The notes beneath the pieces are model-generated. The model saw only the letters and a list, made by a program, of their open reading frames with translations. It was not told the origin of the DNA and ran no database searches. Shown here piece by piece: positions 2,591-28,518 of a stretch of 46,990 nucleotides of DNA. The stretch is from Burkholderiales bacterium. GTDB lineage: Bacteria; Pseudomonadota; Gammaproteobacteria; Burkholderiales; Rhodocyclaceae. The position numbers were made by a program, and so were the translations under genes. Position 1 is the stretch's first letter; every line of letters starts with the position of its first letter. The stretch covers positions 1-46,990 of the forward strand of contig CAXNNH010000001.1 in assembly GCA_964203325.1 (NCBI GenBank), given 5' to 3'.

Positions 2591-2594
2591 TACA

Positions 2595-2909: not shown

Positions 2910-3883
2910 CAGGCAGATTCGAACTCAATGGCAGACTGGGTGCACTGATCGAAGTAGGCGCCGGCTTCCACCCGGAATTAACTGGACGTGAAAACGTTTA
3001 TATGAACGGCTCCATTCTCGGCATGAGCAAGAAGGAGATCGACCTGAAATTCGATTCCATCGTGGATTTCTCCGAGATTGAGCAATTCATCGATACGCCG
3101 GTCAAGCACTACTCATCCGGGATGTATGTGAGACTCGGATTTGCTGTAGCCATACATAACGAGCCCGAAGTCATGTTGGTGGATGAGGTGTTGGCGGTTG
3201 GTGACCTGGGCTTTCAGAAGAAATGCTTTGCACGAATGGAGGCGCTCAAGAACGAGGGCCGTACATTCATACTCGTATCGCATTCCATGGGGCAGATACA
3301 GGAAATGTGCAAACGGGCAATCATGCTGAAAAAAGGTAAGGTTGTTGCAGACGATGAAGCTGTCGTGGTATCCGGACGATACATTGAGTTAATGAATGAA
3401 AAGAAAACGGTAGTTGTAAATCCGGAACAGCAAGAATCAATTATAAGAATTACCGGTCTTGAGATTATGGATGAAAGTGGTAATCGTCTATCTCAGATGG
3501 CTCTAGGAGACGATATTATAGTTCGCATCGAATATGAGGCAGTAGAGGCTATTGAAAACATGGTTGTGGTTTTAAACGTGAAGCGCCCGGGAGTGAAAGT
3601 ATACGAAGTTCATTCCGATATTCAAAAGATTAAATTCTCGGCACACGTGGGAAAGAGTGAAATTCACTGCCGATTGCCAAAACTACATTTAATGCCTAAT
3701 ACGTACGGACTTGATGTGCTGATTTGGAATTCGACCGTAACAAGCATGCTTGCAAGAAAGATAGATTACGAGTCATTCGTAGTAATGCCGCCTAATGATC
3801 CATTTATTCTTGGTTGTAGGCTTTATATGGAACCGACAGAAAGGCCGCCAATCTATGGGCATACGCGCTGGGAACAGAAATAG
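2642..3883 (+). CDS. wzt: O-antigen/polysaccharide ABC exporter ATP-binding protein with a C-terminal Wzt-type carbohydrate-binding domain
   Basis: ATG at 2642 ([15 protein letters not shown]). Walker A is GPNGSGKST, the signature motif is YSSGM, and Walker B is VMLVDEVLAVGD. About 160 further residues (ITGLEIMDESGNRLSQMALGDDIIVRIEYEA...) look like the Wzt_C beta-sandwich. Confidence 0.85.
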   Translation: MSRPAVVFDQVSKVYSLSHQKTENLKDRLTRMLRGGKAPVQTQAETEAFYALKDVSFEIQPGESVGIIGPNGSGKSTSLKILAGVTKPSSGRFELNGRLGALIEVGAGFHPELTGRENVYMNGSILGMSKKEIDLKFDSIVDFSEIEQFIDTPVKHYSSGMYVRLGFAVAIHNEPEVMLVDEVLAVGDLGFQKKCFARMEALKNEGRTFILVSHSMGQIQEMCKRAIMLKKGKVVADDEAVVVSGRYIELMNEKKTVVVNPEQQESIIRITGLEIMDESGNRLSQMALGDDIIVRIEYEAVEAIENMVVVLNVKRPGVKVYEVHSDIQKIKFSAHVGKSEIHCRLPKLHLMPNTYGLDVLIWNSTVTSMLARKIDYESFVVMPPNDPFILGCRLYMEPTERPPIYGHTRWEQK

Positions 3884-8161: not shown

Positions 8162-9310
8162 ATGGTTAAGCCACTCAACATCGTCATGTTTTGGTTTATG
8201 CGCGATTGGGGACAGTACGGTCGCGCCTATGAAAAAATTGCCGCTGAACTAGCCGCGCGCCCGGAGATTGGACGTGTGCTATGCGTTATGCCGCCAAGTG
8301 TGGTTCAGCCGAATGAATATGCTTGGCCGCTCAAGCTCGATCGTTCGTCAGGAAAACTATGGGCGCTGAGCCTCAGCACACGCGTTACCCCAACCACCGG
8401 CGCACCCTACCGATTACGAAAGTGGGCTAATGCAAGGCTTCCAAGCCTGACCTTCTCCACCTTGCTGAGGATGCTTGGTTTCAAACAATCAAATACTTTG
8501 CTGTGGTTGTATCCACCACATCCTTATATTTCGCAGATACAGCAGCAGGTGCCCCACTTCGGTCAACTGATCCAGATTGTGGACAACAACATGCACCTCG
8601 GGACCGCGTCCGAGCAATATCGGCAGGATGCAAGGCGTCAGTATGAATCGCTCGTTTCCACGGCGGACTGCGTGATCGTTTCATCGCAGGCCAACAATGA
8701 CTTTTTCTCGTCGATGAACGGGAAAACGTTTGTGTTCGAGAACGCGGTGGACGAAATCTTCCTGCGTCCCTCAACAGAGTTACCGTCTAAGTCTGGCGCC
8801 AAGAGACCCCGCCTGGGTTATGTGGGTTGGCTCAGCGATCGGACCGACGTCGTGCTACTGGAGCGATTGGCCGAAGAAAGGCCACTTTACGACATCATTT
8901 TGGCCGGCCCTGCCGAAGGCGCGGACATTTCCAGACTCGTCGAACTCCCCAATGTAACTTGGTTGGGTAAAGTACCCTACGAAGACGTTCCCGATCTGCT
9001 TTGCACTTTTGATATCTGCTTGATACCCCATCTGGATACACCCTACAGCCGTAGCATGAGCCCCCTCAAGCTCTTCCAGTACCTGGGTTCCGGCAGGCCG
9101 ATTGTCACTACACCGGTGGCGGGCGTTGACCGCTGGCAGGAACATATACGTATAGCCAACAATCATGAGACCTTCATTCGCATGGTGGATGCCGCGCTGG
9201 TAGAGGAAACCCCCGAGAAATCAGAAGCAAGGATCGCGGCAGCCAAGCGGGAGACCTGGCCAATACGTATCGACCAGATGTTGCAAGCCGTCCGCAGCGC
9301 CTTTCCATGA
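8162..9310 (+). CDS. GT-B fold glycosyltransferase (family 1/4, TuaH-like)
   Basis: The C-terminal motif SPLKLFQYLGSGRPIVTTPVAG is typical of GT1/GT4 proteins. The stop overlaps the next start (ATGA at 9307). Confidence 0.65.
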   Translation: MVKPLNIVMFWFMRDWGQYGRAYEKIAAELAARPEIGRVLCVMPPSVVQPNEYAWPLKLDRSSGKLWALSLSTRVTPTTGAPYRLRKWANARLPSLTFSTLLRMLGFKQSNTLLWLYPPHPYISQIQQQVPHFGQLIQIVDNNMHLGTASEQYRQDARRQYESLVSTADCVIVSSQANNDFFSSMNGKTFVFENAVDEIFLRPSTELPSKSGAKRPRLGYVGWLSDRTDVVLLERLAEERPLYDIILAGPAEGADISRLVELPNVTWLGKVPYEDVPDLLCTFDICLIPHLDTPYSRSMSPLKLFQYLGSGRPIVTTPVAGVDRWQEHIRIANNHETFIRMVDAALVEETPEKSEARIAAAKRETWPIRIDQMLQAVRSAFP

Positions 9311-10998
9311 CCCGGGCTTCTATCCAATGCCGCCAATCGCCGCGATGGGGAGTGCATGGCATCTTTTTCTGCTTTCTCTTTCTAACGCAGCTTTCAAGCG
9401 CAGGTGCCAATGCAGCACTTCCTCCCGATACTGTTGCCCAGCAATGGCGAGTCTTGGAATTGGTGTTGCACGCTGAACGCGAACATCCACAACCCGCTGG
9501 GCTGGAACTGACTGTCTACTTTCATGCTCCAGACGGCAATCACTTTGCTGTACCAGCGTTCTGGGATGGGGAGAAGACTTGGAAAGTGCGTTTCACACCG
9601 ACCCAGGCAGGTGAATGGAAATACGATTCTTCTGCTCCACAATCGCTTGATAATGGCTTGGACGCGCAGCATGGCAACTTCACGGCGCTTCCATCTGAGG
9701 GCGCCAATCCATTCCATCTCCATGGCGGTTTTCTAACAGTCAGTCCAAACGGACGTCACCTGACTTATTCAGATGGAACACCATTCTTCTGGCTGGGCGA
9801 CACTTGGTGGTACTGCCCCTCCAAGCTATGCCCGATTGACAGTTCGTCTGCGCCTGAAGACACCTCGATGTTCAGAACATTGGTTGATACTCGATCGCGG
9901 CAGGGATACACCGTTGCGCAGATGTTGTTCGTAGGACCGAGGGATTCTCAGATCAATCTGCACAGACCCGGGCAATGGGCGGAAGAAGATATGGAATTCT
10001 GGAGGAAGGCTGACGAGTACCTGCGCTATGCTGCTGACAATGGCATTCTTGTTGCTTTGGGAATTGGCTGGCACCGCTCCATCGATGCAGTGCCATTTGA
10101 AGAACTCAAGCTGCTTTGGCGTAATGTTGTGGCGCGGTTTGGCTCCTACCCAGTCACTTGGTTGATTGTCGGTGAATACAATTTGGACAATCATGCGAGC
10201 CGAGTAAGTAAAGTGCTTGCCCTGGGCAAATACATCAAGGAGATTGATCCTTACAAGAGGGCTATGTCGGTTCATCCCTGGTATGCCGGCGGTGAGAAGC
10301 GGCAGGCCTGGAACGCGTCCTGGCTCGATTTCGTGATGCTGCAAGGTGCGCATGGTGGTTTTCCCGCTGCGAGTATCTACAAAGATGCTTATGATTGGCA
10401 GCCAACTCGTCCATTCCTTGAAGACGAGGCCAACTACGAGGGCATTCGCAATGCGACCGCAGAAGTCGTTCGCACGACGGCTTACCGTGCCATTCAGCTA
10501 GGTTCATTCGGCTACACCTACGGGTCGCATGGACTCTGGCATCCCATCCATTCCCCAGATAAACTTATCAGCAGCGTCGAGCAGTGGGGAAAGCCGTTGC
10601 TCTGGTGGGAAGCGCTTCAACGGGATGGCGGGCGGCAGATGGGGTATCTGCGGAAATTTTATCAGTCGCTGCCCTGGTGGCGGCTAGAGCCGCGGCCGGA
10701 GGCTCTGGATACAGGCGCGCAGGTAGTGGATGAAAAGAGGCCAGGCGTCACCGCGAAAGCGGACGGCGATAGTTTTTTCGTGCTCCATTTCCCGCCAGGA
10801 GTACCTGCCAATGCAGCCATCTGGCTAAACGGGTTGGCGGTCGGCGAGCATTACGTGGCGAGATGGTTCAACCCGCGCACAGGCGAATTCCTCAAGGAAG
10901 GTGAACTGCGCGTCGAAACTCCGCGAGTGCTACTACCCGATAGGCCCGACAAGGCTGATTGGCTATTGCAGGTGGGCAAGACATCCATGGCACCGTGA
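9307..10998 (+). CDS. Secreted DUF5060 + DUF4038 (GH140-like TIM-barrel) protein, putative glycoside hydrolase
   Basis: Hydrophobic signal-like N-terminus IFFCFLFLTQLSSAGANA. An Ig-like segment LELVLHAERE...FAVPAFWDGEKTWKVRFTPTQAGEWKY follows, then the DUF4038 hallmark DGTPFFWLGDTWW. Confidence 0.6.
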   Translation: MTRASIQCRQSPRWGVHGIFFCFLFLTQLSSAGANAALPPDTVAQQWRVLELVLHAEREHPQPAGLELTVYFHAPDGNHFAVPAFWDGEKTWKVRFTPTQAGEWKYDSSAPQSLDNGLDAQHGNFTALPSEGANPFHLHGGFLTVSPNGRHLTYSDGTPFFWLGDTWWYCPSKLCPIDSSSAPEDTSMFRTLVDTRSRQGYTVAQMLFVGPRDSQINLHRPGQWAEEDMEFWRKADEYLRYAADNGILVALGIGWHRSIDAVPFEELKLLWRNVVARFGSYPVTWLIVGEYNLDNHASRVSKVLALGKYIKEIDPYKRAMSVHPWYAGGEKRQAWNASWLDFVMLQGAHGGFPAASIYKDAYDWQPTRPFLEDEANYEGIRNATAEVVRTTAYRAIQLGSFGYTYGSHGLWHPIHSPDKLISSVEQWGKPLLWWEALQRDGGRQMGYLRKFYQSLPWWRLEPRPEALDTGAQVVDEKRPGVTAKADGDSFFVLHFPPGVPANAAIWLNGLAVGEHYVARWFNPRTGEFLKEGELRVETPRVLLPDRPDKADWLLQVGKTSMAP

Positions 10999-16054: not shown

Positions 16055-17038
16055 ATGCCTAGAGTCAGTGTCGTTTTGCCGGTATTTAATGCTGGTGTCT
16101 ATCTTCGCGAAGCAGTGGATAGCATGCTTATGCAGTCATATGATGATTTTGAGATTGTTGTAATAGATGATGGTTCGTCTGACGATTCATTTCTAATACT
16201 CAATGGCTTCTCAAGTCCCAAGATGCGAGTGCTTCAAAATGATAAAAATCGCGGACTTATATACACGCTTAATCGGGGAATTGCCGAAGCGCGAGGTGAG
16301 CTTGTAGCACGGATGGATGCGGATGATATATCCAATCCTGATCGTCTTGAAAAGCAAGTGGCTTTTCTGGATGCCAATCCTGATGTTGCAATGGTTGGGT
16401 CCCTGGCGGAAGAGATTGATAGTAATGGGGTGTCTTTGGGTATTGTTTCCTATCCACTTGAATATGAGGAAATTCAGCAAACCCTGATCAAACGAAGCTG
16501 CTTTTGCCATCCATCAGTTATGTTTCGAAAGAATGATGTTCTGACGGTTGGCGGTTACCGCGACAAATTTCGCCATGCTGAAGACTATGATCTCTGGCTT
16601 CGATTGTCGGAATCCCATAGACTCGCAAATATTGGTGAGCTGCTAATAAAGTATCGTATTCATGCTAATCAGGTCTGTTTTAAGAGTCAGTCATCTCAGT
16701 TTCAAGCGGGGCAACTCGCAATAGCAGAGGCACTGGAACGGCGAGGAATACCGCCGGGCGAGAGGCATAAATATTTTCATTCCTTGTTTGGCCGTGCCAG
16801 CGCGTCGCCAGGCACAATAGGGCGAAATTACATTAACTTTGCCCATACATTTAATATGATGGGGGATATACGTAAGGCATGGAGGTCTGCGGCTTTGAGC
16901 GTGTTGCATAGCCCAGTATCCGTTGATGCTTGGCGAGCATTTTTGTCTTACACCCTGCTTGGCCTCTTGGGAAAGAAAAACGTTAATATTATCAAATGGT
17001 ATTTTGAGCGTACAAAGCAGATGTTCATGCGAAATTAA
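16055..17038 (+). CDS. Family 2 glycosyltransferase (tandem paralogue of 14941-15975)
   Basis: Motifs VSVVLPVFNAGVYLREAVDSMLMQ, VVIDDGSSDDS, RMDADDISNPDRLEKQ and EDYDLWLR. Confidence 0.85.
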   Translation: MPRVSVVLPVFNAGVYLREAVDSMLMQSYDDFEIVVIDDGSSDDSFLILNGFSSPKMRVLQNDKNRGLIYTLNRGIAEARGELVARMDADDISNPDRLEKQVAFLDANPDVAMVGSLAEEIDSNGVSLGIVSYPLEYEEIQQTLIKRSCFCHPSVMFRKNDVLTVGGYRDKFRHAEDYDLWLRLSESHRLANIGELLIKYRIHANQVCFKSQSSQFQAGQLAIAEALERRGIPPGERHKYFHSLFGRASASPGTIGRNYINFAHTFNMMGDIRKAWRSAALSVLHSPVSVDAWRAFLSYTLLGLLGKKNVNIIKWYFERTKQMFMRN

Positions 17039-17135
17039 TAACTATGATATTGCTTTGAATAGGTGTTGCTATGCCTTGGCGGGGCAATTTAAATTATTTA
17101 ATTTAGTTCTGTATTATTATATCGCGGAAGAAAAA

Positions 17136-18185
17136 ATGGCTATTTATTTTCTCACGCCCGACTACGCTTTTCCCTCGGGTGGGGTGCGAATCATCTATCG
17201 TCATGTTGATATTCTCAATTCGCATGGCATTCAGGCTTATGTGCTGCATCGCAAGCCTGGGCACCGTGCATCATGGTTTGATAACCAAACATCCATTGCA
17301 TATTTGGATAATACGGTTTCACGCCGGCTACATCTAAAACTGCAAAAGCGTCTGCATCCAGATCGTCCGCGAAAATGGTTTCTACTGGGTCAGACGAATA
17401 AATATCTTGGCGCGGAAGATATCCTGGTTTTGCCCGAGATATATGGGCCGCAGGAGATGCTGGATATGGCGCCTGGTGTGCCAAAAGTGATTCTTAATCA
17501 GGGTTGTTACCTTACTTTTCAGCAATACCCGATTGCGCAGGATATGTTGTTGACCCCCTATCGCCATCCCGATGTCATTGGGGTGCTGACGAATTCACAG
17601 GAGGGTTTGGACTATCTCAAGTATGTCTTTCCGGAGATCCAGGTTGGACGTTTTCATCCCTCTATCGATCCAGTGTTGTTTGGCTATAGGGCGGATAAAA
17701 AGCGAAAAATCGCTTTCACAACTCGCAAGAATGAATTGATCATGCGCCAGGTCGTTAACATATTGAAATTTCGCAATGCGCTGAGTGATTTTGAATTAGT
17801 GCCCTTTGCGGGTATCGGCCAGCAGGAGGTGGCGAAGATATTTCAGGATTCCGTTTTTTATCTAAGCTTCGCCACCTATGAAGGGTTTGGCCTTCCCCCC
17901 GCTGAGGCGATGGCATGTGGCTGTGTGGTGATCGGGTTCAACGGCGGTGGTGGCAAGGAGTTCTTCCAGCCGGAAATTTCTTACCCCATAGAGAATAGTG
18001 ATGTGATCGGCTTCGCCGCTCAGGTTGAACAGTCAATACGTGAGTTTGAGGCAGACCCGTCGGAAATTATGGAGAAGGGGCGATTGGCTTCTGACTTCAT
18101 TCGTGAACACTATTCACCCGAGCAGGAAATCGGTGATGTCGTGAATTACTGGCGTGGATTCGTTTCCGGTGAATCAATGCAATGA
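17136..18185 (+). CDS. Family 4-like (GT-B) glycosyltransferase
   Basis: Start taken at the internal ATG 17136 (MAIYFLTPDYAFPSGGVRIIY). The C-terminal motif is YEGFGLPPAEAMACGCVVIGFNGGG. Confidence 0.7.
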   Translation: MAIYFLTPDYAFPSGGVRIIYRHVDILNSHGIQAYVLHRKPGHRASWFDNQTSIAYLDNTVSRRLHLKLQKRLHPDRPRKWFLLGQTNKYLGAEDILVLPEIYGPQEMLDMAPGVPKVILNQGCYLTFQQYPIAQDMLLTPYRHPDVIGVLTNSQEGLDYLKYVFPEIQVGRFHPSIDPVLFGYRADKKRKIAFTTRKNELIMRQVVNILKFRNALSDFELVPFAGIGQQEVAKIFQDSVFYLSFATYEGFGLPPAEAMACGCVVIGFNGGGGKEFFQPEISYPIENSDVIGFAAQVEQSIREFEADPSEIMEKGRLASDFIREHYSPEQEIGDVVNYWRGFVSGESMQ

Positions 18186-20137
18186 ATTACACAATAGACA
18201 TTGCCGAGCTTTTCGATTCGCCGGCTGATCACGTCGAGCCCCTTCTGAATGGGGCCGATTTTGTGCGTACAGTCTGGCAGGACAGGGCCTTGGGGGAGAG
18301 AATTCTCGACTCCTTCGGCGCCGATTCTGCCCAATGCTCCTTTACAAGACTCTCTTTGCTCGAGGATGCCGAGGTCAGGTTGTCATGCCAGGGGGCCTAC
18401 ACCGTGGAGAGTGCCTCTGCGGGCGGTTGGTTGCTTTTACCGGTATATCCTGGCCCGCCAGCTTACTGGTTGCCAGCGTCCCCCATGCTGCGCAGACTAG
18501 ACAAGAGTGGTCATATTCTAGCCAAGGCTACCGCAGATATATGCGGCCTCAATGTTGCGAGTGAAGGGTTGGGGATATCGCTCAAAGGGCGCGCGGGGCA
18601 ATTGCTTGACTTGGTTATTTGGCGGCTTCCAACTGGCGCCGAGAACTGGGTCGATTCCTTGCGGCAGTTCTCAGCCCTCGAGGTCCAGCGCTATTTCCTT
18701 TGGAGTTCGCACACGACGTATGCGCGGCCAGCAGACCTTTATCATCATCTAGTGCACGGCCATGTCTACGAAAACCATGAAGTCTGGCCCAAGTATTGGC
18801 GGGTTTGCTCGGAACTGGATGCTTATGCCTTATACGTGACCCTTTCCGGTTTGTTGCGGGCCACCGGCAAGCGGTTGTATGACTTGCTGAGAATTCAGGT
18901 GGTGTTTTCGGTCATCGCTCGACAAGCCGCAGATGGCGGCTGGTATCACGGTGAATGGTCCAATGATATGGAATCGCATTACCGCTTGCATGCCGGTGGC
19001 ATGCATTTGCTGGCGGCTTACTTTGAGGAATCACATGATCCGGTTGTGGGCTCTGCCTTGAAAAAGGCGGCTGCCTTTGCGGCTTCACGCACGGACCGGT
19101 TGAACTGCGGGATGTGGTATCTGCACGACTCTCTGGAAGAGAACACGGAAACCCTGAAGAAATATCCGTTCCGTTATGCGGTTAGTCGCGCTCTGGGCAA
19201 GTCGCCCAGCAACTTGTTGGTATTGAATACTCATCTGGATACCAACATTGCCATGGAGCGCTATCGCCAGGTTACGGGCGATGCACAACATGACGCATTA
19301 ATTGCTTCGGCTAACGCGACGACCAAGTCGATTCTTGAACTGCGACCGGCAGAATGGCTGTACCGCCCTCTGTTTCGCGCCATCGGGTTGACTTTCTTGC
19401 CGGTCGAGAAGGCGAAGGCACTCTCCCTGCCGCTGCGTGTCATCAAGCGCATCGCCTGGAAATATCTGGTGCCCAAGCTTCCGCAGATCAAGGCGCGCTT
19501 TCCACGTCTGGTCATGCCCGGCGGTTTTATCGAGCGGGACCTGGTGCAATTTTCTTTCTCTGTGCGTTATCAACCGGTCAACTTGATGGATTTGATCCGC
19601 ACCCGGCATTTATTCAACGAGGCAGCCCTTGATGACCTGCTGGAAGAAAGTTTTACTTTTACACAGCAAAGCGGCATCAAGGATCGCTGGAAGGAATTAA
19701 AGGGCAAGGAAGACGACTCACTGGGCTTCTGGGCTGAAGCGCTGTATCACCTTTGCCTGGTCAAATCAGATGCTCGTTACCTCGCTTGGCTAGCCGAGGC
19801 CATCATGGACCTGGAAGACAATGGTCTCGGCCTTTCGCCTTCTTTGCTGGGCGCCAATGCGGAAGCTATTACGCCTGCCATGCAACGGCCATGCCCTAGC
19901 CCAGCCAATTCCAGATTACGGCTGGTTAATCTTGGGCGCGGAGATTTGATTGAGTTGCTGGTGGTCAACCCGAGCAATCAGACCATCACCCTGGAATGGG
20001 AGGCGCCACCGGCTAACCCGATGGTGTGGCGAGGACCGGTTGCCGCGCTGCCGCAAAATTCCGAACGCGGCCTTGAAGTCCCGCCGCGCGGTTGGCTGCT
20101 TGGGGTCGGCGCTGACTCTGGCACATGTCAGTCATGA
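18182..20137 (+). CDS. Large uncharacterised protein; possibly an (alpha/alpha)6-toroid glycan-modifying enzyme (glucuronyl C5-epimerase / lyase-like)
   Basis: 651 aa, coupled by ATGA to the upstream GT. No signal peptide or TM segment was seen. The segment DGGWYHGEW...MWYLHDS...SNLLVLNTHLDTNIAMERYRQVTGDAQ loosely resembles the C5-epimerase C-terminal domain pattern (..VLNGf...l.gLydy...tGd). The gene call is confident; the function is tentative. Confidence 0.3.
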   Translation: MNYTIDIAELFDSPADHVEPLLNGADFVRTVWQDRALGERILDSFGADSAQCSFTRLSLLEDAEVRLSCQGAYTVESASAGGWLLLPVYPGPPAYWLPASPMLRRLDKSGHILAKATADICGLNVASEGLGISLKGRAGQLLDLVIWRLPTGAENWVDSLRQFSALEVQRYFLWSSHTTYARPADLYHHLVHGHVYENHEVWPKYWRVCSELDAYALYVTLSGLLRATGKRLYDLLRIQVVFSVIARQAADGGWYHGEWSNDMESHYRLHAGGMHLLAAYFEESHDPVVGSALKKAAAFAASRTDRLNCGMWYLHDSLEENTETLKKYPFRYAVSRALGKSPSNLLVLNTHLDTNIAMERYRQVTGDAQHDALIASANATTKSILELRPAEWLYRPLFRAIGLTFLPVEKAKALSLPLRVIKRIAWKYLVPKLPQIKARFPRLVMPGGFIERDLVQFSFSVRYQPVNLMDLIRTRHLFNEAALDDLLEESFTFTQQSGIKDRWKELKGKEDDSLGFWAEALYHLCLVKSDARYLAWLAEAIMDLEDNGLGLSPSLLGANAEAITPAMQRPCPSPANSRLRLVNLGRGDLIELLVVNPSNQTITLEWEAPPANPMVWRGPVAALPQNSERGLEVPPRGWLLGVGADSGTCQS

Positions 20138-20255: not shown

Positions 20256-21356
20256 ATGCTGAAACCAGCCGACAATATTCAAATGACTCAACGCGCTCGC
20301 CTCATCGCCTTTCACTTGCCGCAGTTCCACCCAACGCCGGAAAACGATGCCTGGTGGGGCAAAGGTTTTACCGAGTGGACCAATGTCGCCAAGGCGAAGC
20401 CGTTGTTTCCTGGCCACTATCAACCCCACATTCCTGCGGACCTGGGGTTTTATGACTTGCGCCTGCCCGAGGCGCGACATGCTCAGGCTGAACTGGCAAA
20501 GGAATATGGTGTCAGCGGCTTTTGTTATTACCACTACTGGTTTGGTGATGGTCGACGCATTCTGGAGCGACCGGTCAACGAGGTACTCTCAAGCGGCGAG
20601 CCGGATTTTCCGTTCTGTTTGTGCTGGGCCAACCATTCCTGGAACAGCATTTGGCAAGGTACCAACGAGATGCTGATGGAGCAGCGCTATCCGGGTTGGG
20701 ATGATCATGCCGCGCATTTCGATTGGCTGCTGCGCGCGTTCACAGATCCGCGCTACCTTACTGTGGACGGCAAACCAATCTTTGTTATCTACAAGCCGGA
20801 TGACATCCCCGAAATACAAAAAGTGACCGACTATTGGCGTGAGCGTGCGCTCAAGGCAGGTTTACCCGGGTTGCATCTGATCGGCTTTTCTCATTACAAC
20901 CAAAAATGGGATCCTCGAACACGTGGCCTCGATGCAAGCACCATGCAAGCCTTGCCCAATAGAAACGGGCGGATTCCACGTCGTCATCTCAGCACCAAGA
21001 TTAAACTGGCGCTGCAAGGCAACAAGCACGAATTGACCTTATGGGATTACAAGGACGTCTTGCCCATACTGCTGCGCACCAATCAAGTCGATTGGACGGA
21101 TTACCCTCTGGTATTGCCAAATTGGGACAACACGCCCCGGTCCGGCATGCGTGGTTTGGTATTTGAAAACGCCACGCCAGAATTGTTTCGTGGCCTACTG
21201 AACAAGGCCATTGAACGTGTCTCAACCCGGCCGGCGGACGAACGTATTGTCTTTCTGAAAGCATGGAACGAGTGGGCGGAGGGAAACTATGTGGAGCCGG
21301 ACCAAAAATGGGGCCGGGCCTGGCTTGAAGTTATCAAACAGGAGTTGCAAGCATGA
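20256..21356 (+). CDS. WbsX-family (GH99-like fold) glycosyl transferase/hydrolase-like protein
   Basis: LIAFHLPQFHPTPENDAWWGKGFTEWTNVAKAKPLFPGHYQPHIPADLGFYDLR...CYYHYWF...CLCWANHSW is the WbsX family N-terminal signature as I recall it. Confidence 0.7.
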   Translation: MLKPADNIQMTQRARLIAFHLPQFHPTPENDAWWGKGFTEWTNVAKAKPLFPGHYQPHIPADLGFYDLRLPEARHAQAELAKEYGVSGFCYYHYWFGDGRRILERPVNEVLSSGEPDFPFCLCWANHSWNSIWQGTNEMLMEQRYPGWDDHAAHFDWLLRAFTDPRYLTVDGKPIFVIYKPDDIPEIQKVTDYWRERALKAGLPGLHLIGFSHYNQKWDPRTRGLDASTMQALPNRNGRIPRRHLSTKIKLALQGNKHELTLWDYKDVLPILLRTNQVDWTDYPLVLPNWDNTPRSGMRGLVFENATPELFRGLLNKAIERVSTRPADERIVFLKAWNEWAEGNYVEPDQKWGRAWLEVIKQELQA

Positions 21357-22324
21357 GTGAGACAGCGGCCGAAAAATCGAGCGAGATTCGCCCTCTGATC
21401 TCGGTGGTGATGCCCTGCTTCAACGCTGCCCCCTATCTGGCTGAGGCAGTCGGTTCCGCTTTGGGGCAAACCTATGGCAACGTCGAAGTCGTACTGGTGG
21501 ATGATGGTTCTACCGATGGTTCTGCTGAGATTGCCGCACAACTAGCAACTGAACACCCCGAACGTGTTCGGTTACTCCACTCTCCTCACATGGGGCCTTA
21601 CCCAGCGCGGAATAAGGCGCTTCGTATCATCCAGGGCGAGTTCGTTGCGTTTCTTGACGCCGATGACTGGTGGGATGCCAGCACGCTGGAAAAACTTCAT
21701 GCGGCTTTGACCACCGCCAATGCCGATATCGCCTATTGCGGTTGGCAGAATGTGGGGGAGGGCTTGACTCTGGAACCCTATGTGCCTCACGAATATGAGA
21801 AGGCAGATCCGGTCGATGCGTTTCTCCGTTCCTGCCCCTGGCCAATTCATGCCGCACTGATAAAGCGTACCATCGTCGACCGCATCGGCGGTTTTTCCGA
21901 ACGGCGCTTTTCTTCGATGGACTACGACTTCTGGCTGCGTGCACTGGCGCAAACACGCAGCATCACGCGCGTGCCCGAGGTATTGGCGTTCTACCGCTGG
22001 CACGGCCAGGGTCAGCTATCAGCGGTGAAATGGCGGCAGGTGCTGGATGCGCTCGAAGCGCAGCAAGCCTTCATCGCCGCCAACCCGCGACTGGTGGCGC
22101 ATCTACCGCTGGAAAAGTTGCGCGATTTGACGGAAGGGCAAGTGCTGCGTCAGGCTTATCGTGCCTTCTGGAAGCGTGATCTGCTGTCGGCGCAGAAGCT
22201 GTTCCGTCATGTGGCAACGCATGGCGGTTTTGCTCTCAGCGATCTGCGCCATATCCTGGCAGCACTGTTGCCGATGACGATTTATCGCGGCCTTGTCCAT
22301 CTGACCGAGCGGAGCCGCCAATGA
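21353..22324 (+). CDS. Family 2 glycosyltransferase
   Basis: Motifs ISVVMPCFNAAPYLAEAVGSALGQ, VLVDDGSTDGS, FLDADDWW and DYDFWLR. Confidence 0.85.
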   Translation: MSETAAEKSSEIRPLISVVMPCFNAAPYLAEAVGSALGQTYGNVEVVLVDDGSTDGSAEIAAQLATEHPERVRLLHSPHMGPYPARNKALRIIQGEFVAFLDADDWWDASTLEKLHAALTTANADIAYCGWQNVGEGLTLEPYVPHEYEKADPVDAFLRSCPWPIHAALIKRTIVDRIGGFSERRFSSMDYDFWLRALAQTRSITRVPEVLAFYRWHGQGQLSAVKWRQVLDALEAQQAFIAANPRLVAHLPLEKLRDLTEGQVLRQAYRAFWKRDLLSAQKLFRHVATHGGFALSDLRHILAALLPMTIYRGLVHLTERSRQ

Positions 22325-23118
22325 GCCAGGCCACCCGGATTCCTGTGTTGATGTACCACCGTGTCGGCGCCTCCAGTAATGCCTGGGAGGCACGTTACGC
22401 GATTTCCCCCGAGGGTTTCGCCGCCCACATGCAAACCCTCGCCAGATCGGGCTATCGCGCGGTCGATATCGATGCTCTGGTGGACTGGCTGGAGGGTGGC
22501 GCTGCATTGCCTGAGGGGGCGTTCCTGCTCACCTTCGATGACGGTTTCCGCGGCGTTCGAGAGCATGCCCTGCCGGTGCTGGAAAAGCTGGGCTGGCCGT
22601 TCACCGTCTTTCTGGTCAGTGACCTGATCGGTGGTGAGGATGTCTGGACGCGTAGCAGCAATCCCTCCGGGGCTACCTTCCCGCTGCTGGATGCTGGCGA
22701 GATCCGGGACATGCAGCGACGCGGCTGTAGTTTCCATTCGCATACTCGCAGTCACGCCAGTTTGCCGAAGCTCGATGATGTGGCGCTGGCCGATCAATTG
22801 CGGGGGTCGCGCTCGGCTCTGGCCGAACTGCTCGACCATGACGTGCGTTATATCGCTTATCCTTTTGGCCATCTGGATGAACGGGTGGAGGCCGCCACCC
22901 GTGCCGCCGGCTATCGTGCAGCCTTCGCCACGCAGCCTGGTTTCAACCGTCGCGACGTGAACCGGTTCCGGATTCGCCGCATCGACGTGTTCGGCACCGA
23001 TACCCCAGCCATGCTTGCACGCAAGATTCACCTCGGCAGCAACGACGGCAGTCTGGGCCATGCCTTGCGCTATTACCTGGCGCGCCTGAGCAGCCGGCTG
23101 CCCGGAGTCGGACGATGA
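22321..23118 (+). CDS. Polysaccharide deacetylase (NodB homology / CE4)
   Basis: Motifs IPVLMYHRV, LTFDDGF (Asp-Asp motif) and HSHTRSH (His-x-x-x-His metal motif). Confidence 0.8.
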   Translation: MSQATRIPVLMYHRVGASSNAWEARYAISPEGFAAHMQTLARSGYRAVDIDALVDWLEGGAALPEGAFLLTFDDGFRGVREHALPVLEKLGWPFTVFLVSDLIGGEDVWTRSSNPSGATFPLLDAGEIRDMQRRGCSFHSHTRSHASLPKLDDVALADQLRGSRSALAELLDHDVRYIAYPFGHLDERVEAATRAAGYRAAFATQPGFNRRDVNRFRIRRIDVFGTDTPAMLARKIHLGSNDGSLGHALRYYLARLSSRLPGVGR

Positions 23119-24044
23119 GCTTCGCCTACAGTGTTGCCCTGTGCACCCATAACCATGCCGACCGCCTTGTGCGCACACTCGCAGACCTGCCCGGCATCCG
23201 GCAGCCCCGCGCCGCATGGGAATTGCTGATCATCGATAACGCTAGCCGCGACGCTACCCCCGAAATCCTTGCCAACCACGCGTGGCCGGTGGAATGGACG
23301 GTGCGCGTGGTGCGCGAGGAAAAGCTTGGCCTCTCCAACGCGCGCAACCGCGCCATCCGGGAAGCACGCGGTGAGTATGTCATCTTCATCGACGACGACG
23401 AGACCGCCGACGCCGACTGGCTGTGTGCGTTCGAACGCCTGATTGAGGCACAAGCCCCTGATGCCTTCGGTGGCCGTATTGAGGTGCTGTTCGAGGACCA
23501 GCGTCCGTCTTGGCTGCGCGACGAGTTGCTCGGCTTTCTCGGCCAGCTTAACCGCCACGAGATGATCGCGCCCCTGACTGAGCCAGGCACCTCCTTCTAT
23601 GGTGGTAACTTCGGATTCCGTACAAGCGTTTGCGAACGCGTCGGCGCCTTCGATACCGACCTCGGCCGGAAGGGCACGGACAATACGGGTGGGGAGGAAG
23701 TGGACTTTTATCGTCGACTGCTTGGCGCCGGCATGCGCGTGTGGTGGACGCCGGATGCAGTGATTCATCACCGCATCCAGGCGGTGAAGCTTGACCGCCG
23801 CTACTTTATTGACCTGCATTACCGACAGGGTCGCATGGAAGCCATCCGCAAACGCGGTAACGCTTCCCGGCTGCCGCCGCCTTACCTGGTCGGCCAGTTC
23901 GCCCGCGCGCTCCAATCCGTATGGAATGAATATCGCATCGGTGGTCGTGACGCCACGTTGCGCAAGGAAATGAACGTGGCCTATTTCGTCGGCTACATCA
24001 ACGGCTGGCTGTTTGGCCCGGCGCCGGATACTTCTGCATCGTGA
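23115..24044 (+). CDS. Family 2 glycosyltransferase
   Basis: Motifs SVALCTHNHADRL, LIIDNASRDAT, GLSNARNRA and FIDDDE. Confidence 0.8.
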   Translation: MSFAYSVALCTHNHADRLVRTLADLPGIRQPRAAWELLIIDNASRDATPEILANHAWPVEWTVRVVREEKLGLSNARNRAIREARGEYVIFIDDDETADADWLCAFERLIEAQAPDAFGGRIEVLFEDQRPSWLRDELLGFLGQLNRHEMIAPLTEPGTSFYGGNFGFRTSVCERVGAFDTDLGRKGTDNTGGEEVDFYRRLLGAGMRVWWTPDAVIHHRIQAVKLDRRYFIDLHYRQGRMEAIRKRGNASRLPPPYLVGQFARALQSVWNEYRIGGRDATLRKEMNVAYFVGYINGWLFGPAPDTSAS

Positions 24045-24862
24045 TCCGCCTCGCGTTCCGACTCGACGATCCCTCAGCCACCAGCAATCGGGAGATTGAG
24101 GCGCGCATCCTGGAATCCCTTGCGCGCCACGGCCTGCGCGCCACTTTCGCGGTGATTCCGTTTCGCGGTGAGGAGGCGACACCTCTGCCTTTGACCAGGG
24201 AACGGGCGCGGCCGCTGCGCGAAGCTGTTGAACAAGGCGTGCTGGATGTCGCCCTGCATGGCCATTCCCACCACGATAATAATCCTGGCGGCCAACCCAG
24301 CGAGTTCGCCGGCTTGCCGGCATCCCGCCAACGCGAGCTGATCTCGTCTGGAAAGGACTTGCTGGAGGCGATCTTCGAACGCCCCATCCGTGGTTTCGTT
24401 CCACCCTACAACAGCTTCGATGCTGCGACCCTGGCCGTGCTTGAGCAAGCCGGACTCAGCCATCTGTCCTCGAATATGCGCTATGCGCCGATGCGTCATA
24501 CTTCTCTGCGTCTGCTACCGCTTACCTGCCACCTCCCAGAGCTGAAGGCTGCGATCGCTGAGGCGCGCCGTTTCTCTCGTTTGCAGCCGCTGGTCGTCGT
24601 GGTCATGCACCACTACGATTTCCCCGGAGGCGAGGCGCCGGTATTCTCTGATTTCGCAGAGTTCGACGCGCTGTTGGCCTGGATCGCCGAGCAGAAAGAT
24701 GTCCAGATCAGGACACTGTCACAACTGGCTGAAGAACTTACTTCCACCGCTAGCCAGCGCGTATTTCAGCATAATCGCCTGCGGGATCACCTTCCCTGGC
24801 GTTATCGTCACTGGCTGCCCAGCCTTTGCGCGGCCTCCCGGCCGTTGTGGTGGCCTGGATGA
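24041..24862 (+). CDS. Deacetylase-like protein (DUF2334-like, glycoside hydrolase/deacetylase fold)
   Basis: GTG start overlapping the upstream TGA. Motifs RLDDPSATSN, ATFAVIPF, ALHGHSHHD and FVPPYNSFD are typical of this fold. Confidence 0.5.
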   Translation: MIRLAFRLDDPSATSNREIEARILESLARHGLRATFAVIPFRGEEATPLPLTRERARPLREAVEQGVLDVALHGHSHHDNNPGGQPSEFAGLPASRQRELISSGKDLLEAIFERPIRGFVPPYNSFDAATLAVLEQAGLSHLSSNMRYAPMRHTSLRLLPLTCHLPELKAAIAEARRFSRLQPLVVVVMHHYDFPGGEAPVFSDFAEFDALLAWIAEQKDVQIRTLSQLAEELTSTASQRVFQHNRLRDHLPWRYRHWLPSLCAASRPLWWPG

Positions 24863-24887
24863 AGGCCGCGTCTGGAAGCTCGCCAAC

Positions 24888-25706
24888 ATGCCATATTCAA
24901 CCTTGGAGGATCGCTTTATGAACAAAGAAGAACTGCTTGCCGAAGTCGCTAAACATGAATGGATGCACACCATCGACCTCGGCCAGGGTGTGGTTACTCC
25001 CGGCCGTTGGCCTGTCAACCAGAACACCCTAAGCGCTTACGACCGAATTGATTTCAAGGGCAAGAAGGTTCTAGACCTGGGTTCCTGCAATGGCCTCTGG
25101 TCTTTTGAAGCCGAACGTCGTGGCGCTGCCGAGGTGTATTCCGTCGATTACCTGACCCATGTCGGCTATTGGTGCACCCCGGCCTACAAGCTTGCCCATG
25201 AGGCGCTCGGCTCGAAGGCCAAATACTTTCCGGACATGAATGTCTATGACGTGGAGCAGCTCGGCATCAACGACTTCGACGTGGTGATCTTCAGCGGCAT
25301 TTACTACCACCTCAAGCACCCCCTGATGGCGTTGACGATTCTTCGCCGGGTGATGAAGGAGGGGGGGCACATTATCATCGAGGGGCCGATCTTTCCGGAT
25401 GTCGAGCAGAGTTATTCCAGCTTTCACTATCGTGATCTTCTGTTCGGCGACAAGAGCAACTGGTGTGTGCCGAGCTTGCGCTGTTTGCGGGAGTGGGTCG
25501 AATGCTCCTTTTTCGAGATCGAGACGGAGTCTTTCAACCAGGAACTTCCCTCCGGCGGTAAGCAGAAACTCAAGTCAATGATTCGCGCCGGCCTGGGTAA
25601 GCAGTCCTCCGACATCCTGCGTACCGTAATGCTGGCGCGGGCGGTGGTCCGCAAGGATCCACTCTATTCCACCATCGATCCCGATCTGGCCGCCTTCTTC
25701 CGCTGA
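24888..25706 (+). CDS. Class I SAM-dependent methyltransferase (DUF1698/CmoB-like subgroup)
   Basis: Start taken at the internal ATG 24888 (MPYSTLEDRF). WMHTIDLGQGVVTPG is present and SAM motif I is VLDLGSCNGLWSF. VVIFSGIYYHLKHP is also present. Confidence 0.75.
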   Translation: MPYSTLEDRFMNKEELLAEVAKHEWMHTIDLGQGVVTPGRWPVNQNTLSAYDRIDFKGKKVLDLGSCNGLWSFEAERRGAAEVYSVDYLTHVGYWCTPAYKLAHEALGSKAKYFPDMNVYDVEQLGINDFDVVIFSGIYYHLKHPLMALTILRRVMKEGGHIIIEGPIFPDVEQSYSSFHYRDLLFGDKSNWCVPSLRCLREWVECSFFEIETESFNQELPSGGKQKLKSMIRAGLGKQSSDILRTVMLARAVVRKDPLYSTIDPDLAAFFR

Positions 25707-25722: not shown

Positions 25723-26664
25723 ATGCGTCTGACTATCCTGATCTGCACCCACGACCGCGTCGAGTTGCTGGGCAAGACGCTGGCCTCGCTGAATGCCGCC
25801 GAGCGGCCGGTCGGCTGGGAGGTGGACATTCTGGTGATTGCCAATGCCTGCGAGGACGGTACCCATTCCTTCCTCGGCGCCTATCCGGATGGATTGCCGG
25901 GCGCGCTCCCCCTCCACTGGTTAGCAGAGCCGACGCCGGGCAAGTCGCACGCGCTGAATCTGGCGATGGGCGTGGTCGAGTCCGATCTGGTTGCTTTCGT
26001 CGATGACGATCACCGCGTTGACCCCACCTATCTTGACGCTGTCTGCCGGGCCGCCGACCAGTACCCGGAAACCGACCTGTTTTGCGGCCGCATCTTGCCC
26101 GATTGGGATGGCAGCGAGCCCGCGTGGGTGCACGACAACGGCCCGTACCGGATCTATCCGTTGCCGGTGCCGCGCTTCGACCTCGGCGGCGCCGGTCGCC
26201 CGATCGATGCCGATATCGCCATTCCCGGCGGCGGCAACTTGTTCCTGCGCACACCCTGGCTGCGCCGGGTCGGCTCCTTCGTGGTCGAACTTGGCCCGGT
26301 TGGCCACAACCTTGGTGGTGCCGAAGATATTGAATGGGTGCTGCGCGCCCTCGGGCTGGGCGCGCGCCTGCGCTATGTCCCGGAGGTCATGCAACATCAC
26401 TTTGTCGATACCGAGCGCCTGTGCATGCGTTACCTTCTCGCCAAGGCCTATGAGAGATCGGCCTCCACCGTGCGCGTGCATACTTCCGCTGCCGAGGGCG
26501 TTCCGCTGTATATGTATCGCAAGCTGTTCGGCTATCTCTTTTCTGCCTTGACCGCCTGGTCGACCAATCGCCGCCGCTTCTTTCTGGTTCGACTGGCGGC
26601 CAGCCTGGGAGAGATCAAGGGTCATCGGCAGGCGCGTGGCGACCGCTTGAGGAACACGCGATGA
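25723..26664 (+). CDS. Family 2 glycosyltransferase
   Basis: Motifs LTILICTHDRVELL, LVIANACEDGT, GKSHALNLA and FVDDDH. Confidence 0.8.
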   Translation: MRLTILICTHDRVELLGKTLASLNAAERPVGWEVDILVIANACEDGTHSFLGAYPDGLPGALPLHWLAEPTPGKSHALNLAMGVVESDLVAFVDDDHRVDPTYLDAVCRAADQYPETDLFCGRILPDWDGSEPAWVHDNGPYRIYPLPVPRFDLGGAGRPIDADIAIPGGGNLFLRTPWLRRVGSFVVELGPVGHNLGGAEDIEWVLRALGLGARLRYVPEVMQHHFVDTERLCMRYLLAKAYERSASTVRVHTSAAEGVPLYMYRKLFGYLFSALTAWSTNRRRFFLVRLAASLGEIKGHRQARGDRLRNTR

Positions 26665-27617
26665 ATCCGCTTGAAAAACTGCTCAAGCTGCGCGACCCGG
26701 AAATCCGCGCCAAGAATCTGCGTGCCCTGCGCTACGCCGCTCGCGGTCTCGCCTGGGACATCCTGCGTCCGGCGCAACCCGATCCGGTCTTTCTGGTCGG
26801 CTGCTCGCGCTCCGGAACCACGGTCACTTACGAAACGCTGGCGGCGGCGCCACAACTGCTCAAGTTTGGCTATGAACTCCCGGATTTCTGGGACAGCCTA
26901 TGGGGACCGCTCAATAACGGCTGGGAGTCCGAAGCCGCCGGCGCTGAACAGGCCATGCCGGAACATCGCGATGCCGCCCTGCGCTTTTTCTATCAGCGTT
27001 TGGGCGCCGGGCGCGTGCTCGACAAAACCTGTATCAACACGCTGCGCCTGCCTTACCTGTACAAGCTGTTTCCTGAGGCTCGCTTCGTCTTCATCCAGCG
27101 TGATGGTCGCGACAACATCAGTTCGATGATCGACGGCTGGCGCCACGGCCGCACTGATGGCGGTTTCGGTCTGGAGAATTTTTTCGGCCCGTTCCCGGAA
27201 CCGGTGGCGATCAATGGCGGTGAATTCGACGAATGGCATTTCTTCCTGCCGCCAGGCTGGCGCGAGTACAACCACGCCAGCCTGGAGGAGGTGTGCGCAT
27301 TCCAGTGGGTTTCCGCTAATCGCCTGGCGCTCGACGCCAAACGCCTGATTCCGGCAGCGCAATGGGTGCATCTGCGTTATGAGGATCTGTTCACCCGGCC
27401 GGTCGAGATGTTCGAGGCCGCATTCGCGCAGCTCGAACTGCCCTTCACGGAGGCGGTCCGCCAGCGTTGCGCCAACCTTCACAAGCGCCCCACCAGTATC
27501 GTCAAGGGTTCGCCGCAACGGCAGAAATGGCGGCAACACAATCCCGAGGCCATTGATCGCATCCTGCCGATGATCCGGCCCCTGATGGAACAGCTCGGCT
27601 ATGACGCGGATGATTGA
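26661..27617 (+). CDS. PAPS-dependent sulfotransferase family protein
   Basis: The 5'-PSB loop is VFLVGCSRSGTTVTYE and the 3'-PB motif is FVFIQRDGRDNISSM. ATGA coupling to the upstream GT2. Confidence 0.8.
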   Translation: MNPLEKLLKLRDPEIRAKNLRALRYAARGLAWDILRPAQPDPVFLVGCSRSGTTVTYETLAAAPQLLKFGYELPDFWDSLWGPLNNGWESEAAGAEQAMPEHRDAALRFFYQRLGAGRVLDKTCINTLRLPYLYKLFPEARFVFIQRDGRDNISSMIDGWRHGRTDGGFGLENFFGPFPEPVAINGGEFDEWHFFLPPGWREYNHASLEEVCAFQWVSANRLALDAKRLIPAAQWVHLRYEDLFTRPVEMFEAAFAQLELPFTEAVRQRCANLHKRPTSIVKGSPQRQKWRQHNPEAIDRILPMIRPLMEQLGYDADD

Positions 27618-28518
27618 CCGTGACCAGACGCCCCCACTGGTTAGCGTGGTCATACCTACCTACAACTCGGCGACCACCTTGCCGCGCACGCTTGCCAGCG
27701 TGCTAGCGCAAACCTGGACACGGTGCGAGATACTGGTAATCGACGATGGCAGCGCAGACACCACGCCAGCGCTGCTAGCCGGTTACGGCGAGCAGTTGCG
27801 CGCTATCCGCCAGGATAATGCCGGGCCGTCCGCCGCTCGTAACCGAGGCCTGCGCGAAGCGCGTGGCGACTATGTGGCGTTTCTCGATGCCGACGATCTT
27901 TGGCTGCCGGAAAAGCTGGAACGCCAGGTTGCTCTGCTGTCCGCGCACCCGGAGCTAGGCTTCTGCTCCACTGCCACGAGTGTGGTCGACCCGGAAGGAT
28001 CCCCTCTGCGTGATTGGCCTTGCCGAAGCGGCGAGGAGCCTCTGCTGGAAACCCTGTTTATGCACAGCGCGGCGGTAAGCGGCTCCACCTCGGGCGTATT
28101 GGCGCGCCGCCAGCTGGTTCTGGACGCAGGCGGCTTCGACGAAAGCCTGCGCGGCTTCGAGGACCCCGATCTGTGGATCCGCCTCGCCGCGCGCACCGGC
28201 TATGCCTGCGTCCCGGAGCGGCTCACTCGCGTGGTGCGGATGCCCGGGAGCGTCAGCGGCAACTTGCCCACGATGTGCGCGGCAACCCTGGCTTCGTTCG
28301 AGAAAAACCGCGACCTGCTGCCACCGGACAAGCGTGGCGCATATTGGCGCGCTGCCTGCGCCGGTGCCCTGGCGGACTATGCCAAGGGAGTTTATCGCCA
28401 GGGGCGGAGCGGCCTGGCGCTGGTCTGGCTGCTGCGTGCCCTGTGGCTGTCGCCATGGCGGCGCGGGCGTCTTCTGCTCGGTTTGCTGTTCGCTGTGCTC
28501 ACGGGGCGCGCGCTGTGA
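27601..28518 (+). CDS. Family 2 glycosyltransferase
   Basis: Motifs VSVVIPTYNSATTLPRTLASVLAQ, LVIDDGSADTT, FLDADDLWLPEKLERQ and EDPDLWIR. The alternative start at 27610 is equally possible. Confidence 0.85.
   Translation: MTRMIDRDQTPPLVSVVIPTYNSATTLPRTLASVLAQTWTRCEILVIDDGSADTTPALLAGYGEQLRAIRQDNAGPSAARNRGLREARGDYVAFLDADDLWLPEKLERQVALLSAHPELGFCSTATSVVDPEGSPLRDWPCRSGEEPLLETLFMHSAAVSGSTSGVLARRQLVLDAGGFDESLRGFEDPDLWIRLAARTGYACVPERLTRVVRMPGSVSGNLPTMCAATLASFEKNRDLLPPDKRGAYWRAACAGALADYAKGVYRQGRSGLALVWLLRALWLSPWRRGRLLLGLLFAVLTGRAL

Follow-up and report, generated by a model that had tools for sequence, protein, structure and literature searches.

The stretch of DNA analysed here (46,990 nucleotides; positions 1 to 46,990 of contig CAXNNH010000001.1 in the assembly GCA_964203325.1 of a Burkholderiales bacterium of the Rhodocyclaceae), hereafter the window, is occupied by one long gene cluster for the ABC-transporter-dependent synthesis of a glycan. 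Within the cluster lies a gene (positions 18182-20137) for a 651-residue protein, denoted P0001, to which standard searches assign no family. The analysis described below indicates that P0001 is very probably a cytoplasmic, carbohydrate-modifying enzyme of the six-hairpin class that partners a CE4 (carbohydrate esterase family 4) deacetylase on the nascent glycan. It is a distant homolog of GlcE, the glucuronyl C5-epimerase by which iduronic acid is formed from glucuronic acid in heparan sulfate.

The source is a 2.0-Mb metagenome-assembled genome (MAG) in 321 contigs, 62.5% complete. Along with the transporter ATPase Wzt, which carries a Wzt_C domain, the cluster contains a dozen or more glycosyltransferase (GT) genes of families GT2 and GT4, two CE4-type deacetylases, a methyltransferase, a Sulfotransfer_3 protein and a membrane-anchored sulfatase-like protein. 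The genes most relevant for the present analysis are the following.

2570-3883, forward strand: Wzt ABC-transporter ATPase with the Wzt_C glycan-binding domain, which marks the ABC-transporter-dependent pathway
16923-18185, forward strand: GT4-type glycosyltransferase, upstream of the P0001 gene and translationally coupled to it (ATGA)
18182-20137, forward strand: the P0001 gene, with a stop-free translation of 651 aa; single copy in its own genome
20256-21356, forward strand: WbsX-family gene, directly downstream of the P0001 gene (a GT4 gene in other loci)
21353-22324, forward strand: GT2a, a conserved module partner
22321-23118, forward strand: CE4a, a cytoplasmic polysaccharide N-deacetylase and the most specific conserved partner
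23115-24044, forward strand: GT2b, a conserved module partner
25723-26664, forward strand: GT2c, a conserved module partner, fused to a sulfatase-like domain in 10 related loci
26661-27617, forward strand: cytoplasmic Sulfotransfer_3 sulfotransferase

The initial annotation of this DNA, made from the sequence alone, had placed a CE4 deacetylase at 22321 and a sulfotransferase at 26661, and both were identified as such. Neither P0001 nor CE4a, CE4b, the sulfotransferase or the glycosyltransferases contain a signal peptide or a transmembrane segment, so the chemistry performed by these proteins appears to be cytoplasmic and to precede export.

The gene and its family

The open reading frame (ORF) at 18182-20137 is clearly a genuine coding gene, as indicated by the existence of homologs and by its codon composition, with a GC content of 0.62 at third codon positions (GC3) versus 0.45 at second positions (GC2). 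The start codon overlaps the TGA stop codon of the upstream GT4-type ORF (caATGAatt). The protein has a calculated mass of 72.8 kDa and an isoelectric point of 6.2, and is predicted to lack a signal peptide and transmembrane segments because the maximum 19-residue Kyte-Doolittle mean is 1.03 and the N-terminus is acidic. Thus, the description of a long, ATGA-coupled gene for a soluble protein given in the initial annotation is borne out, and so is its failure to recognise any glycosyltransferase, acyltransferase or Rossmann family. A Pfam search of P0001 returned a single chance match of 13 bits and, even at E<=10, did not retrieve PF06662 (C5-epim_C), the epimerase domain for which that annotation had proposed to look; no match was obtained when NCBIfam was searched with P0001, when the PDB was searched with P0001 using phmmer, or when the PDB was searched with a profile of close homologs (A1). 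The two segments quoted as motifs are both present in the translation, DGGWYHGEW as residues 251-259 and SNLLVLNTHLDTNIAMERYRQVTGD as residues 343-367.

P0001 had been considered an orphan, which it is not. In a collection clustered at 90% identity, 717 homologs were detected at E<=1e-3, with identities to P0001 down to 45% over 98% of the length among the matches listed, and when 1.84 billion cluster representatives (50%-identity library) were scanned exhaustively with HMMER, 330 matched the family, 125 of these below 1e-30. No Pfam domain is listed for any of the best 120 of the 717 homologs, and all named ones among these are designated "hypothetical protein". Among 300 sampled genomes of its class, five encode a family member, the window's own genome counted; such a sparse distribution is typical of surface-glycan genes of the serotype kind. 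A limited literature search yielded no publication on the family. One family gene (G839:C27:27221-28855) contains an in-frame TGA and is possibly a pseudogene or the product of a sequencing error. In the database protein P0152, part of the family protein is apparently fused to a GT2 domain, and the same holds for P0179 with a GT4 and for P0172 with a GT9 domain; these three fusions are either real or gene-call artefacts of short contigs.

Fold

An AlphaFold2 model of P0001 built with a 40-sequence alignment (mean predicted local distance difference test score, pLDDT, 93.0; predicted template modelling score, pTM, 0.94) consists of four parts, namely, a beta-sandwich, a short helical linker, an (alpha/alpha) toroid and a small C-terminal beta domain. 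The three domains are encoded as follows.

18182-18631, forward strand: N-terminal beta-sandwich domain, residues 1-150
18674-19861, forward strand: (alpha/alpha) toroid (six-hairpin) domain of the catalytic type, residues ~165-560
19904-20116, forward strand: small C-terminal beta domain in the AlphaFold2 model, residues ~575-645

In the model, a beta domain followed by a catalytic-type (alpha/alpha) toroid reproduces the GlcE-type order. GlcE structures came first in two structure comparisons, with GlcE entries at ranks 1-4 in one of them, and the nearest non-self neighbour of P0001 in the Atlas is a cluster of bacterial C5-epimerases, aligned over query residues 4-498. The toroid fold that the initial annotation had envisaged is thereby borne out. 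Fold similarity to the unsaturated glucuronyl hydrolases of glycoside hydrolase (GH) families GH88 and GH105 is almost as high as that to GlcE.

Remote homology to glucuronyl C5-epimerases

The PF06662 profile, with a gathering score of 23.3 bits, matched no protein in the window's own genome. Of 50 full-length proteins that are distantly related to P0001, with identities of 24-33%, 29 matched PF06662 at E<=0.01 and 14 exceeded the gathering score, the top score being 38.6 bits. However, such weak matches are not specific because a Thioredox_DsbH (DUF255) six-hairpin protein (L095:8564-10303, forward strand) scores 27.8 bits, also over the gathering score; some of the proteins annotated in databases as C5-epim_C on weak scores may, as a consequence, be unrelated members of the six-hairpin class. 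Three weak PF06662 matches in 301 genomes of the window's phylum, the Thioredox_DsbH protein of L095 among them, were not counted as members of the family.

Given this lack of specificity, a direct profile-profile test was built with hhalign. Profile A1 represents the close clade, A2 consists of 48 family members of both clades, and A3 includes the distant clade only; the families compared were C5-epim_C, AGE (the N-acylglucosamine 2-epimerase superfamily), GH88 and DsbH, with 11 control sequences. The C5-epim_C profile, A4, was made from six canonical PF06662 proteins of Acidobacteriota that were found by a PF06662 scan of 301 genomes of that phylum. These proteins are 315-381 aa long and score about 134-179 bits on PF06662; the numbering of human GlcE was transferred through one of them, which matches the human enzyme at E 4.9e-25 (human residue number = chain index + 90). 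The results were as follows.

A2 versus A4: probability 90.7%, E 1.2e-6, 159 columns
A3 versus A4: probability 90.4%, E 1.4e-6, 160 columns
A2 versus AGE (5 sequences): probability 37.4%, E 3.5e-4, 247 columns
A2 versus DsbH (3 sequences): probability 3.3%, E 0.013, 35 columns
A2 versus GH88 (3 sequences): probability 0.9%, E 0.06, 80 columns
A2 versus reversed A4: probability 0.1%, E 0.71, 34 columns
C5-epim_C versus AGE (cross-control): probability 7.6%, E 0.0046, 154 columns
A1 versus A4: probability 3.5%, E 0.012, 104 columns

Across the comparisons, the controls ranged over 37-45% for AGE (with negative similarity), 0.2-0.9% for GH88 (PF07470), 2-3% for DsbH and 0.1% for the reversed profile. 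The failure of the close-clade profile A1 alone against A4 explains why standard annotation overlooks the family. The top PDB match of A3 was human GlcE, at a marginal E of 0.011; a word-index search with A3 retrieved 24 members of the same clade only and never reached canonical GlcE, and a PDB search with P0226 alone gave only chance matches. The hhalign results, the structure ranks and the Atlas neighbour together support true remote homology to GlcE as opposed to a chance likeness. From the profile comparisons, we conclude that the P0001 family represents a deep branch of the GlcE lineage inside the six-hairpin class.

Active-site residues

The catalytic residues of human GlcE are given in PMC13308652, with reference to Debarnot 2019, as E499, Y500, N510, Y560 and Y578, and all five are invariant in A4. 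Their counterparts in the P0001 family were sought in 216 full-length members (147 close and 69 distant). N510 corresponds to N349 of P0001, which is Asn in 215 of the 216, and Y578 corresponds to Y463, which is Tyr in 214. The counterpart of Y560 is F398, a position occupied by Phe in 124 of the 147 close members and by Tyr in 12 of these and in 42 of the 69 distant ones; one helical turn before it, Y394 is Tyr in 200 of the 216. E499 and Y500 fall opposite Y328 and P329 in a gapped loop, where the alignment is uncertain, and no conserved Glu-Tyr pair was found among the 216 members. Judged by these alignments, P0001 is not a canonical GlcE, and the likeness to the C-terminal domain of C5-epimerases suspected in the initial annotation therefore holds at the superfamily level, with hhalign controls well below the C5-epim_C comparison, but not for most of the catalytic set.

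Many residues without a catalytic counterpart in GlcE are nearly invariant, namely, H256, E264, H266, W312, H315, D316, E319, K340, N344, H351, P441, R442, P446, G448, R452 and D470. Together with the conserved positions described above, they form the following motifs.

18947-18979, forward strand: H256-G-x-W ... E264-x-H266, located in the loop that precedes an inner helix (E264 in 213 and H266 in 212 of 216)
19115-19138, forward strand: W312-x-x-H315-D316-x-x-E319 (W312, H315 and D316 each in 214 of 216)
19199-19234, forward strand: K340 ... N344 ... L-N349-T-H351, with N349 equivalent to human GlcE N510
19361-19375, forward strand: Y394 and F398, position 398 being aligned with GlcE Y560
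19502-19537, forward strand: P441-R442 and then the insertion L443-F457 (L-V-M-P446-G-G448-F-I-E-R452...), with R452 in 215 of 216
19568-19591, forward strand: Y463 ... D470, with Y463 equivalent to GlcE Y578

The W312-E319 motif aligns to the strand that precedes the EEY loop of GlcE, and no GlcE catalytic residue matches it; the 15-residue insertion L443-F457 is specific to the family and has no counterpart in GlcE. In the model, the near-invariant residues are predicted to occupy long loops and the N-terminal ends of helices on a single side of the toroid, namely, the side at which six-hairpin enzymes bind substrate. Abstraction of a proton adjacent to a carboxylate could be accommodated by a two-base site of tyrosine and histidine in which arginines hold an anionic group.

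A conserved module in related loci

With the close-clade alignment A1, we collected 78 related loci, mostly from Burkholderiales-type and other Gammaproteobacteria, several of these from isolates. Among the isolates are Aromatoleum tolulyticum ATCC 51758 (L067), Rubrivivax gelatinosus IM 151 (L068), Methylotuvimicrobium sp. KM1 (L043) and Methyloversatilis sp. XJ19-13 (L072). The genes form a co-oriented module in the order family gene, WbsX or GT4, GT2a, CE4a, GT2b, GT2c, and a sulfotransferase or sulfatase-like gene. Neighbours were counted in the 42 loci that have flanks of 9 kb or more on each side: a GT2a-like gene is present in 39 of the 42, CE4a in 37, a sulfotransferase or sulfatase-like gene in 30, Wzt in 29, any sulfotransferase (Sulfotransfer_2, Sulfotransfer_3, or Sulfotransfer_4 fused to a CysQ-like domain) in 18, and an AsnB-like amidotransferase in 14. 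This conserved synteny supports a functional tie between P0001 and the CE4 deacetylase. The fusions of GT2c with a sulfatase-like domain are proteins of about 1057 aa (e.g. L019:15825-18995). In one locus, a Sulfotransfer_2 protein replaces Sulfotransfer_3 (L031:9091-9801, forward strand), and in another, a Sulfotransfer_4 domain is fused to an inositol-monophosphatase/CysQ-like domain that is possibly involved in the recycling of 3'-phosphoadenosine 5'-phosphate (L043:13113-14486, reverse strand). Given that other sulfotransferase families take the place of Sulfotransfer_3, sulfation appears to be a recurrent but interchangeable component of the module.

Possible functions of P0001

Among the specific reactions that could be considered for P0001, C5-epimerisation of uronate residues at the polymer level, in the cytoplasm, ranks first because the nearest relatives in both sequence and structure are C5-epimerases, because the key tyrosine and asparagine are kept and because there is an archaeal precedent; we propose it tentatively, at somewhat less than an even chance. 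The precedent is Agl32 (VNG1058H) of Halobacterium salinarum, described in PMC12624080 and PMC13308652 as the glucuronic acid C5-epimerase of N-glycosylation and as a toroid protein that, without the GlcE catalytic residues, epimerises glycan-bound glucuronic acid and controls sulfation. As far as published descriptions go, Agl32 resembles P0001 in having a toroid devoid of the GlcE catalytic set, in belonging to a lipid-linked glycan pathway and in being coupled to sulfation.

With respect to substrate, epimerase chemistry and individual residue roles, we infer the following scheme. P0001 would act on the nascent, lipid-linked polysaccharide before its Wzt-dependent export, in conjunction with the CE4 N-deacetylase and the GT2 enzymes, and would invert the C5 configuration of a hexuronic acid. 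One proton shuttle could be Y463, the counterpart of GlcE Y578, and the substrate would be positioned by N349, the counterpart of N510. The base on the opposite face would be recruited from H315, D316, E319, H351 and Y394, in place of E499, Y500 and Y560 of GlcE, and R442, R452 and K340 might bind a carboxylate or a sulfate.

Several observations weigh against a uronate epimerase or its heparan-like extension discussed below. In the alignments, only two of the five GlcE catalytic positions appear to be kept in the P0001 family. No UDP-sugar 6-dehydrogenase gene is present in the 47-kb window, and a search of the 78 loci likewise revealed none at a distance of up to 10 kb from the family gene (blastp of 1116 ORFs with, effectively, two dehydrogenase queries from the MAG). 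In two complete genomes, the nearest such gene is more than 500 kb away from the family gene. The sulfotransferase at 26661-27617 showed no specific likeness to heparan N-sulfotransferases in a PDB search, its only matches being tyrosylprotein sulfotransferases at E about 1e-6 or weaker; all NCBIfam matches of the GT2 proteins are far under the cut-offs, and neither set of matches points to a sugar specificity. As for uronate supply elsewhere, the MAG encodes two UDP-glucose 6-dehydrogenase-like proteins and one TviB-like protein, and UDP-sugar 6-dehydrogenase genes are present in all five relatives checked, either distant from the family gene or at ambiguous positions. On another contig of the same genome (L005, contig C131), the longest ORF beside a UDP-glucose 6-dehydrogenase-like gene encodes a 491-aa protein that, judged by eye, resembles a heparinase II/III-type protein.

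A more elaborate scheme, foreshadowed in the initial annotation, brings together the three chemistries of heparan maturation. The module of a GlcE-like toroid, CE4, GT2/GT4 and a sulfotransferase would then be a bacterial, cytoplasmic counterpart of heparan-sulfate maturation, in which a lipid-linked glycan would be N-deacetylated, sulfated and C5-epimerised prior to ABC export, yielding an iduronate-containing, sulfated, glycosaminoglycan (GAG)-like surface polymer in Burkholderiales-type and methanotroph bacteria. The link to CE4 and the frequent presence of sulfotransferases came out of the locus comparison as this scheme would have it. Nevertheless, we treat the three-step scheme as hypothetical, and indeed as doubtful, because of the missing catalytic residues, the lack of a nearby uronate-precursor gene and a sulfotransferase without heparan likeness.

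Alternatively, P0001 could be a glycoside hydrolase or a polysaccharide lyase that is paired with the deacetylase and trims, primes or releases the growing chain. There are precedents for such an activity, namely, PelA and PgaB, in which a deacetylase and a hydrolase are combined in a partnership that resembles that of P0001 and CE4, and MmpH, a cytoplasmic protein that takes part in the synthesis of methylmannose polysaccharide. GH88, however, despite its close fold, gave no clear sequence-profile signal in a comparison with three sequences (0.9% versus 90.7% for C5-epim_C), the known deacetylase-hydrolase pairs are periplasmic whereas P0001 and CE4a are cytoplasmic, a probable exported apiosidase-like hydrolase is already encoded in the window (9307-10998), and the conserved Tyr and Asn coincide with catalytic positions of GlcE. 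We consider this possibility unlikely, albeit a viable competitor of the epimerase.

An improbable alternative is an epimerase or isomerase of the AGE type (PF07221; N-acylglucosamine and cellobiose 2-epimerases), similar to cellobiose 2-epimerase or Agl32/AglQ, that would employ histidine bases on a sugar or a short lipid-linked oligosaccharide. An N-T-H motif is indeed common to the AGE superfamily and the P0001 family, but the alignment between the two is of low confidence and negative similarity, and the catalytic His pair could not be mapped with confidence. Furthermore, AGE enzymes act on free reducing sugars, and a lipid-linked glycan lacks the free reducing end that classical members require.

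The beta-sandwich, toroid and C-terminal beta domain are also the architecture of the GH65 and GH94 families, and hence P0001 could be envisaged as a glycoside phosphorylase or another transferase that builds or remodels a linkage. This is quite improbable given that the GH65/GH94 matches to the model have template modelling (TM) scores of only 0.2-0.3 with root-mean-square deviations of 16-20 A, that the VIA Z of GH94 (11.3-11.4) is lower than that of GlcE, and that Pfam scans of P0001 and its relatives show no signal at the sequence level. Finally, a non-catalytic role in ABC-transporter-dependent assembly, as a scaffold, as a regulator of chain length or as an adaptor that binds the glycan, which the invariable location of the family gene among glycosyltransferases and the three apparent fusions might suggest, seems highly improbable because about 20 invariant polar residues cluster on the loop face of the toroid in an active-site pattern and the fusions, coming from short contigs, may be gene-call artefacts.

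Relationship to known epimerases and implications

Compared with GlcE, P0001 lacks equivalents of E499/Y500 and Y560, contains the L443-F457 insertion and the extra invariant residues E264/H266 and W312-H315-D316-E319, and has a toroid that reaches residue ~560 followed by an added C-terminal beta domain; moreover, GlcE resides in the Golgi lumen whereas P0001 is cytoplasmic. Canonical bacterial PF06662 proteins include the epimerase of Bermanella marisrubri RED65 and the candidate from E. coli O112ab (PMC3068255); those analysed here, the six Acidobacteriota proteins of A4, are 315-381 aa long and keep the five catalytic residues, in contrast to the P0001 family, with about 650 aa and PF06662 scores from nil to 38.6 bits. 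The two groups share a setting among the GT2 and GT4 genes of surface-polysaccharide clusters, and AsnB-like genes are recurrent neighbours in either case. Around six annotated canonical C5-epim_C genes, GT4 is adjacent in five loci, GT2 in four, an AsnB-like gene in two, and a fusion of ADH_zinc_N with GFO/IDH/MocA in three; the P0001 family, by contrast, adjoins CE4. The three Acidobacteriota fusions (L098:10655-12955, L101:11579-13963 and L102:8418-10553, all on the reverse strand) are accompanied by an AsnB-like gene in two cases, and this neighbourhood of C5-epim_C and the fusion oxidoreductase is conserved and uncharacterised.

The P0001 family is unannotated, large and tied to genes for deacetylation and sulfation; its fold and lineage are known, and what is new is the variant of the active site. 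If P0001 is an epimerase, it would embody a second catalytic solution in the GlcE fold, with one Tyr and one Asn kept and His, Asp, Glu and Arg added. In that case, the family would also offer a new source of enzymes, and its gene could be used in wastewater, groundwater and methanotroph communities to mark glycans that are sulfated and may contain iduronate. A hydrolase or lyase activity would instead imply a new step in ABC-transporter-dependent pathways of glycan synthesis, at which the chain is processed in the cytoplasm. The Bermanella enzyme is presented in PMC13308652 as the only demonstrated bacterial glucuronyl C5-epimerase, and heparin biomanufacturing is portrayed as an active field in PMC12834895. 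In our own estimation, C5-epimerisation limits engineered heparin production, so that a soluble bacterial epimerase would be useful. N- and O-sulfated "GAG-like" polymers have been measured in granular sludge, with pathways described as unknown (PMC10483923); the module could be their genetic basis if the heparan-like interpretation is true, and the P0001 family may be indicative of a pathway by which bacteria make sulfated surface sugars of a heparan-like kind.

Other features of the window

No Wzm permease is encoded in the window, and the sole match in the MAG, on contig C51, is 27% identical. The apiosidase-like glycoside hydrolase contains a DUF5060 domain and a probable signal peptide, and is present in 2 of the 78 related loci. 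In the sulfatase-like protein (28014-30602), about four transmembrane-like segments precede the sulfatase/phosphodiesterase domain. Instead of a soluble sulfatase, this protein could be a transferase or hydrolase of phospho- or sulfo-esters that faces the periplasm. A second deacetylase-like ORF (DUF2334/CE4; 24041-24862) overlaps the methyltransferase ORF (24699-25706) by 164 nt, and therefore the methyltransferase probably starts later than the listed position 24699; as listed, its N-terminus includes one hydrophobic segment.

The left end of the contig (1-2600) is scrambled. There, a 110-aa ORF (621-953) duplicates the N-terminus of Wzt, and the ORF 1069-1662 joins a Bro-N domain to a fragment of GDP-mannose 4,6-dehydratase. 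Remnants in other frames are Gmd-like (1605-1892) and, judged by eye, GDP-fucose-synthase-like (2145-2573), and a small ORF (329-628) resembles, also by eye, a nucleotidyltransferase.

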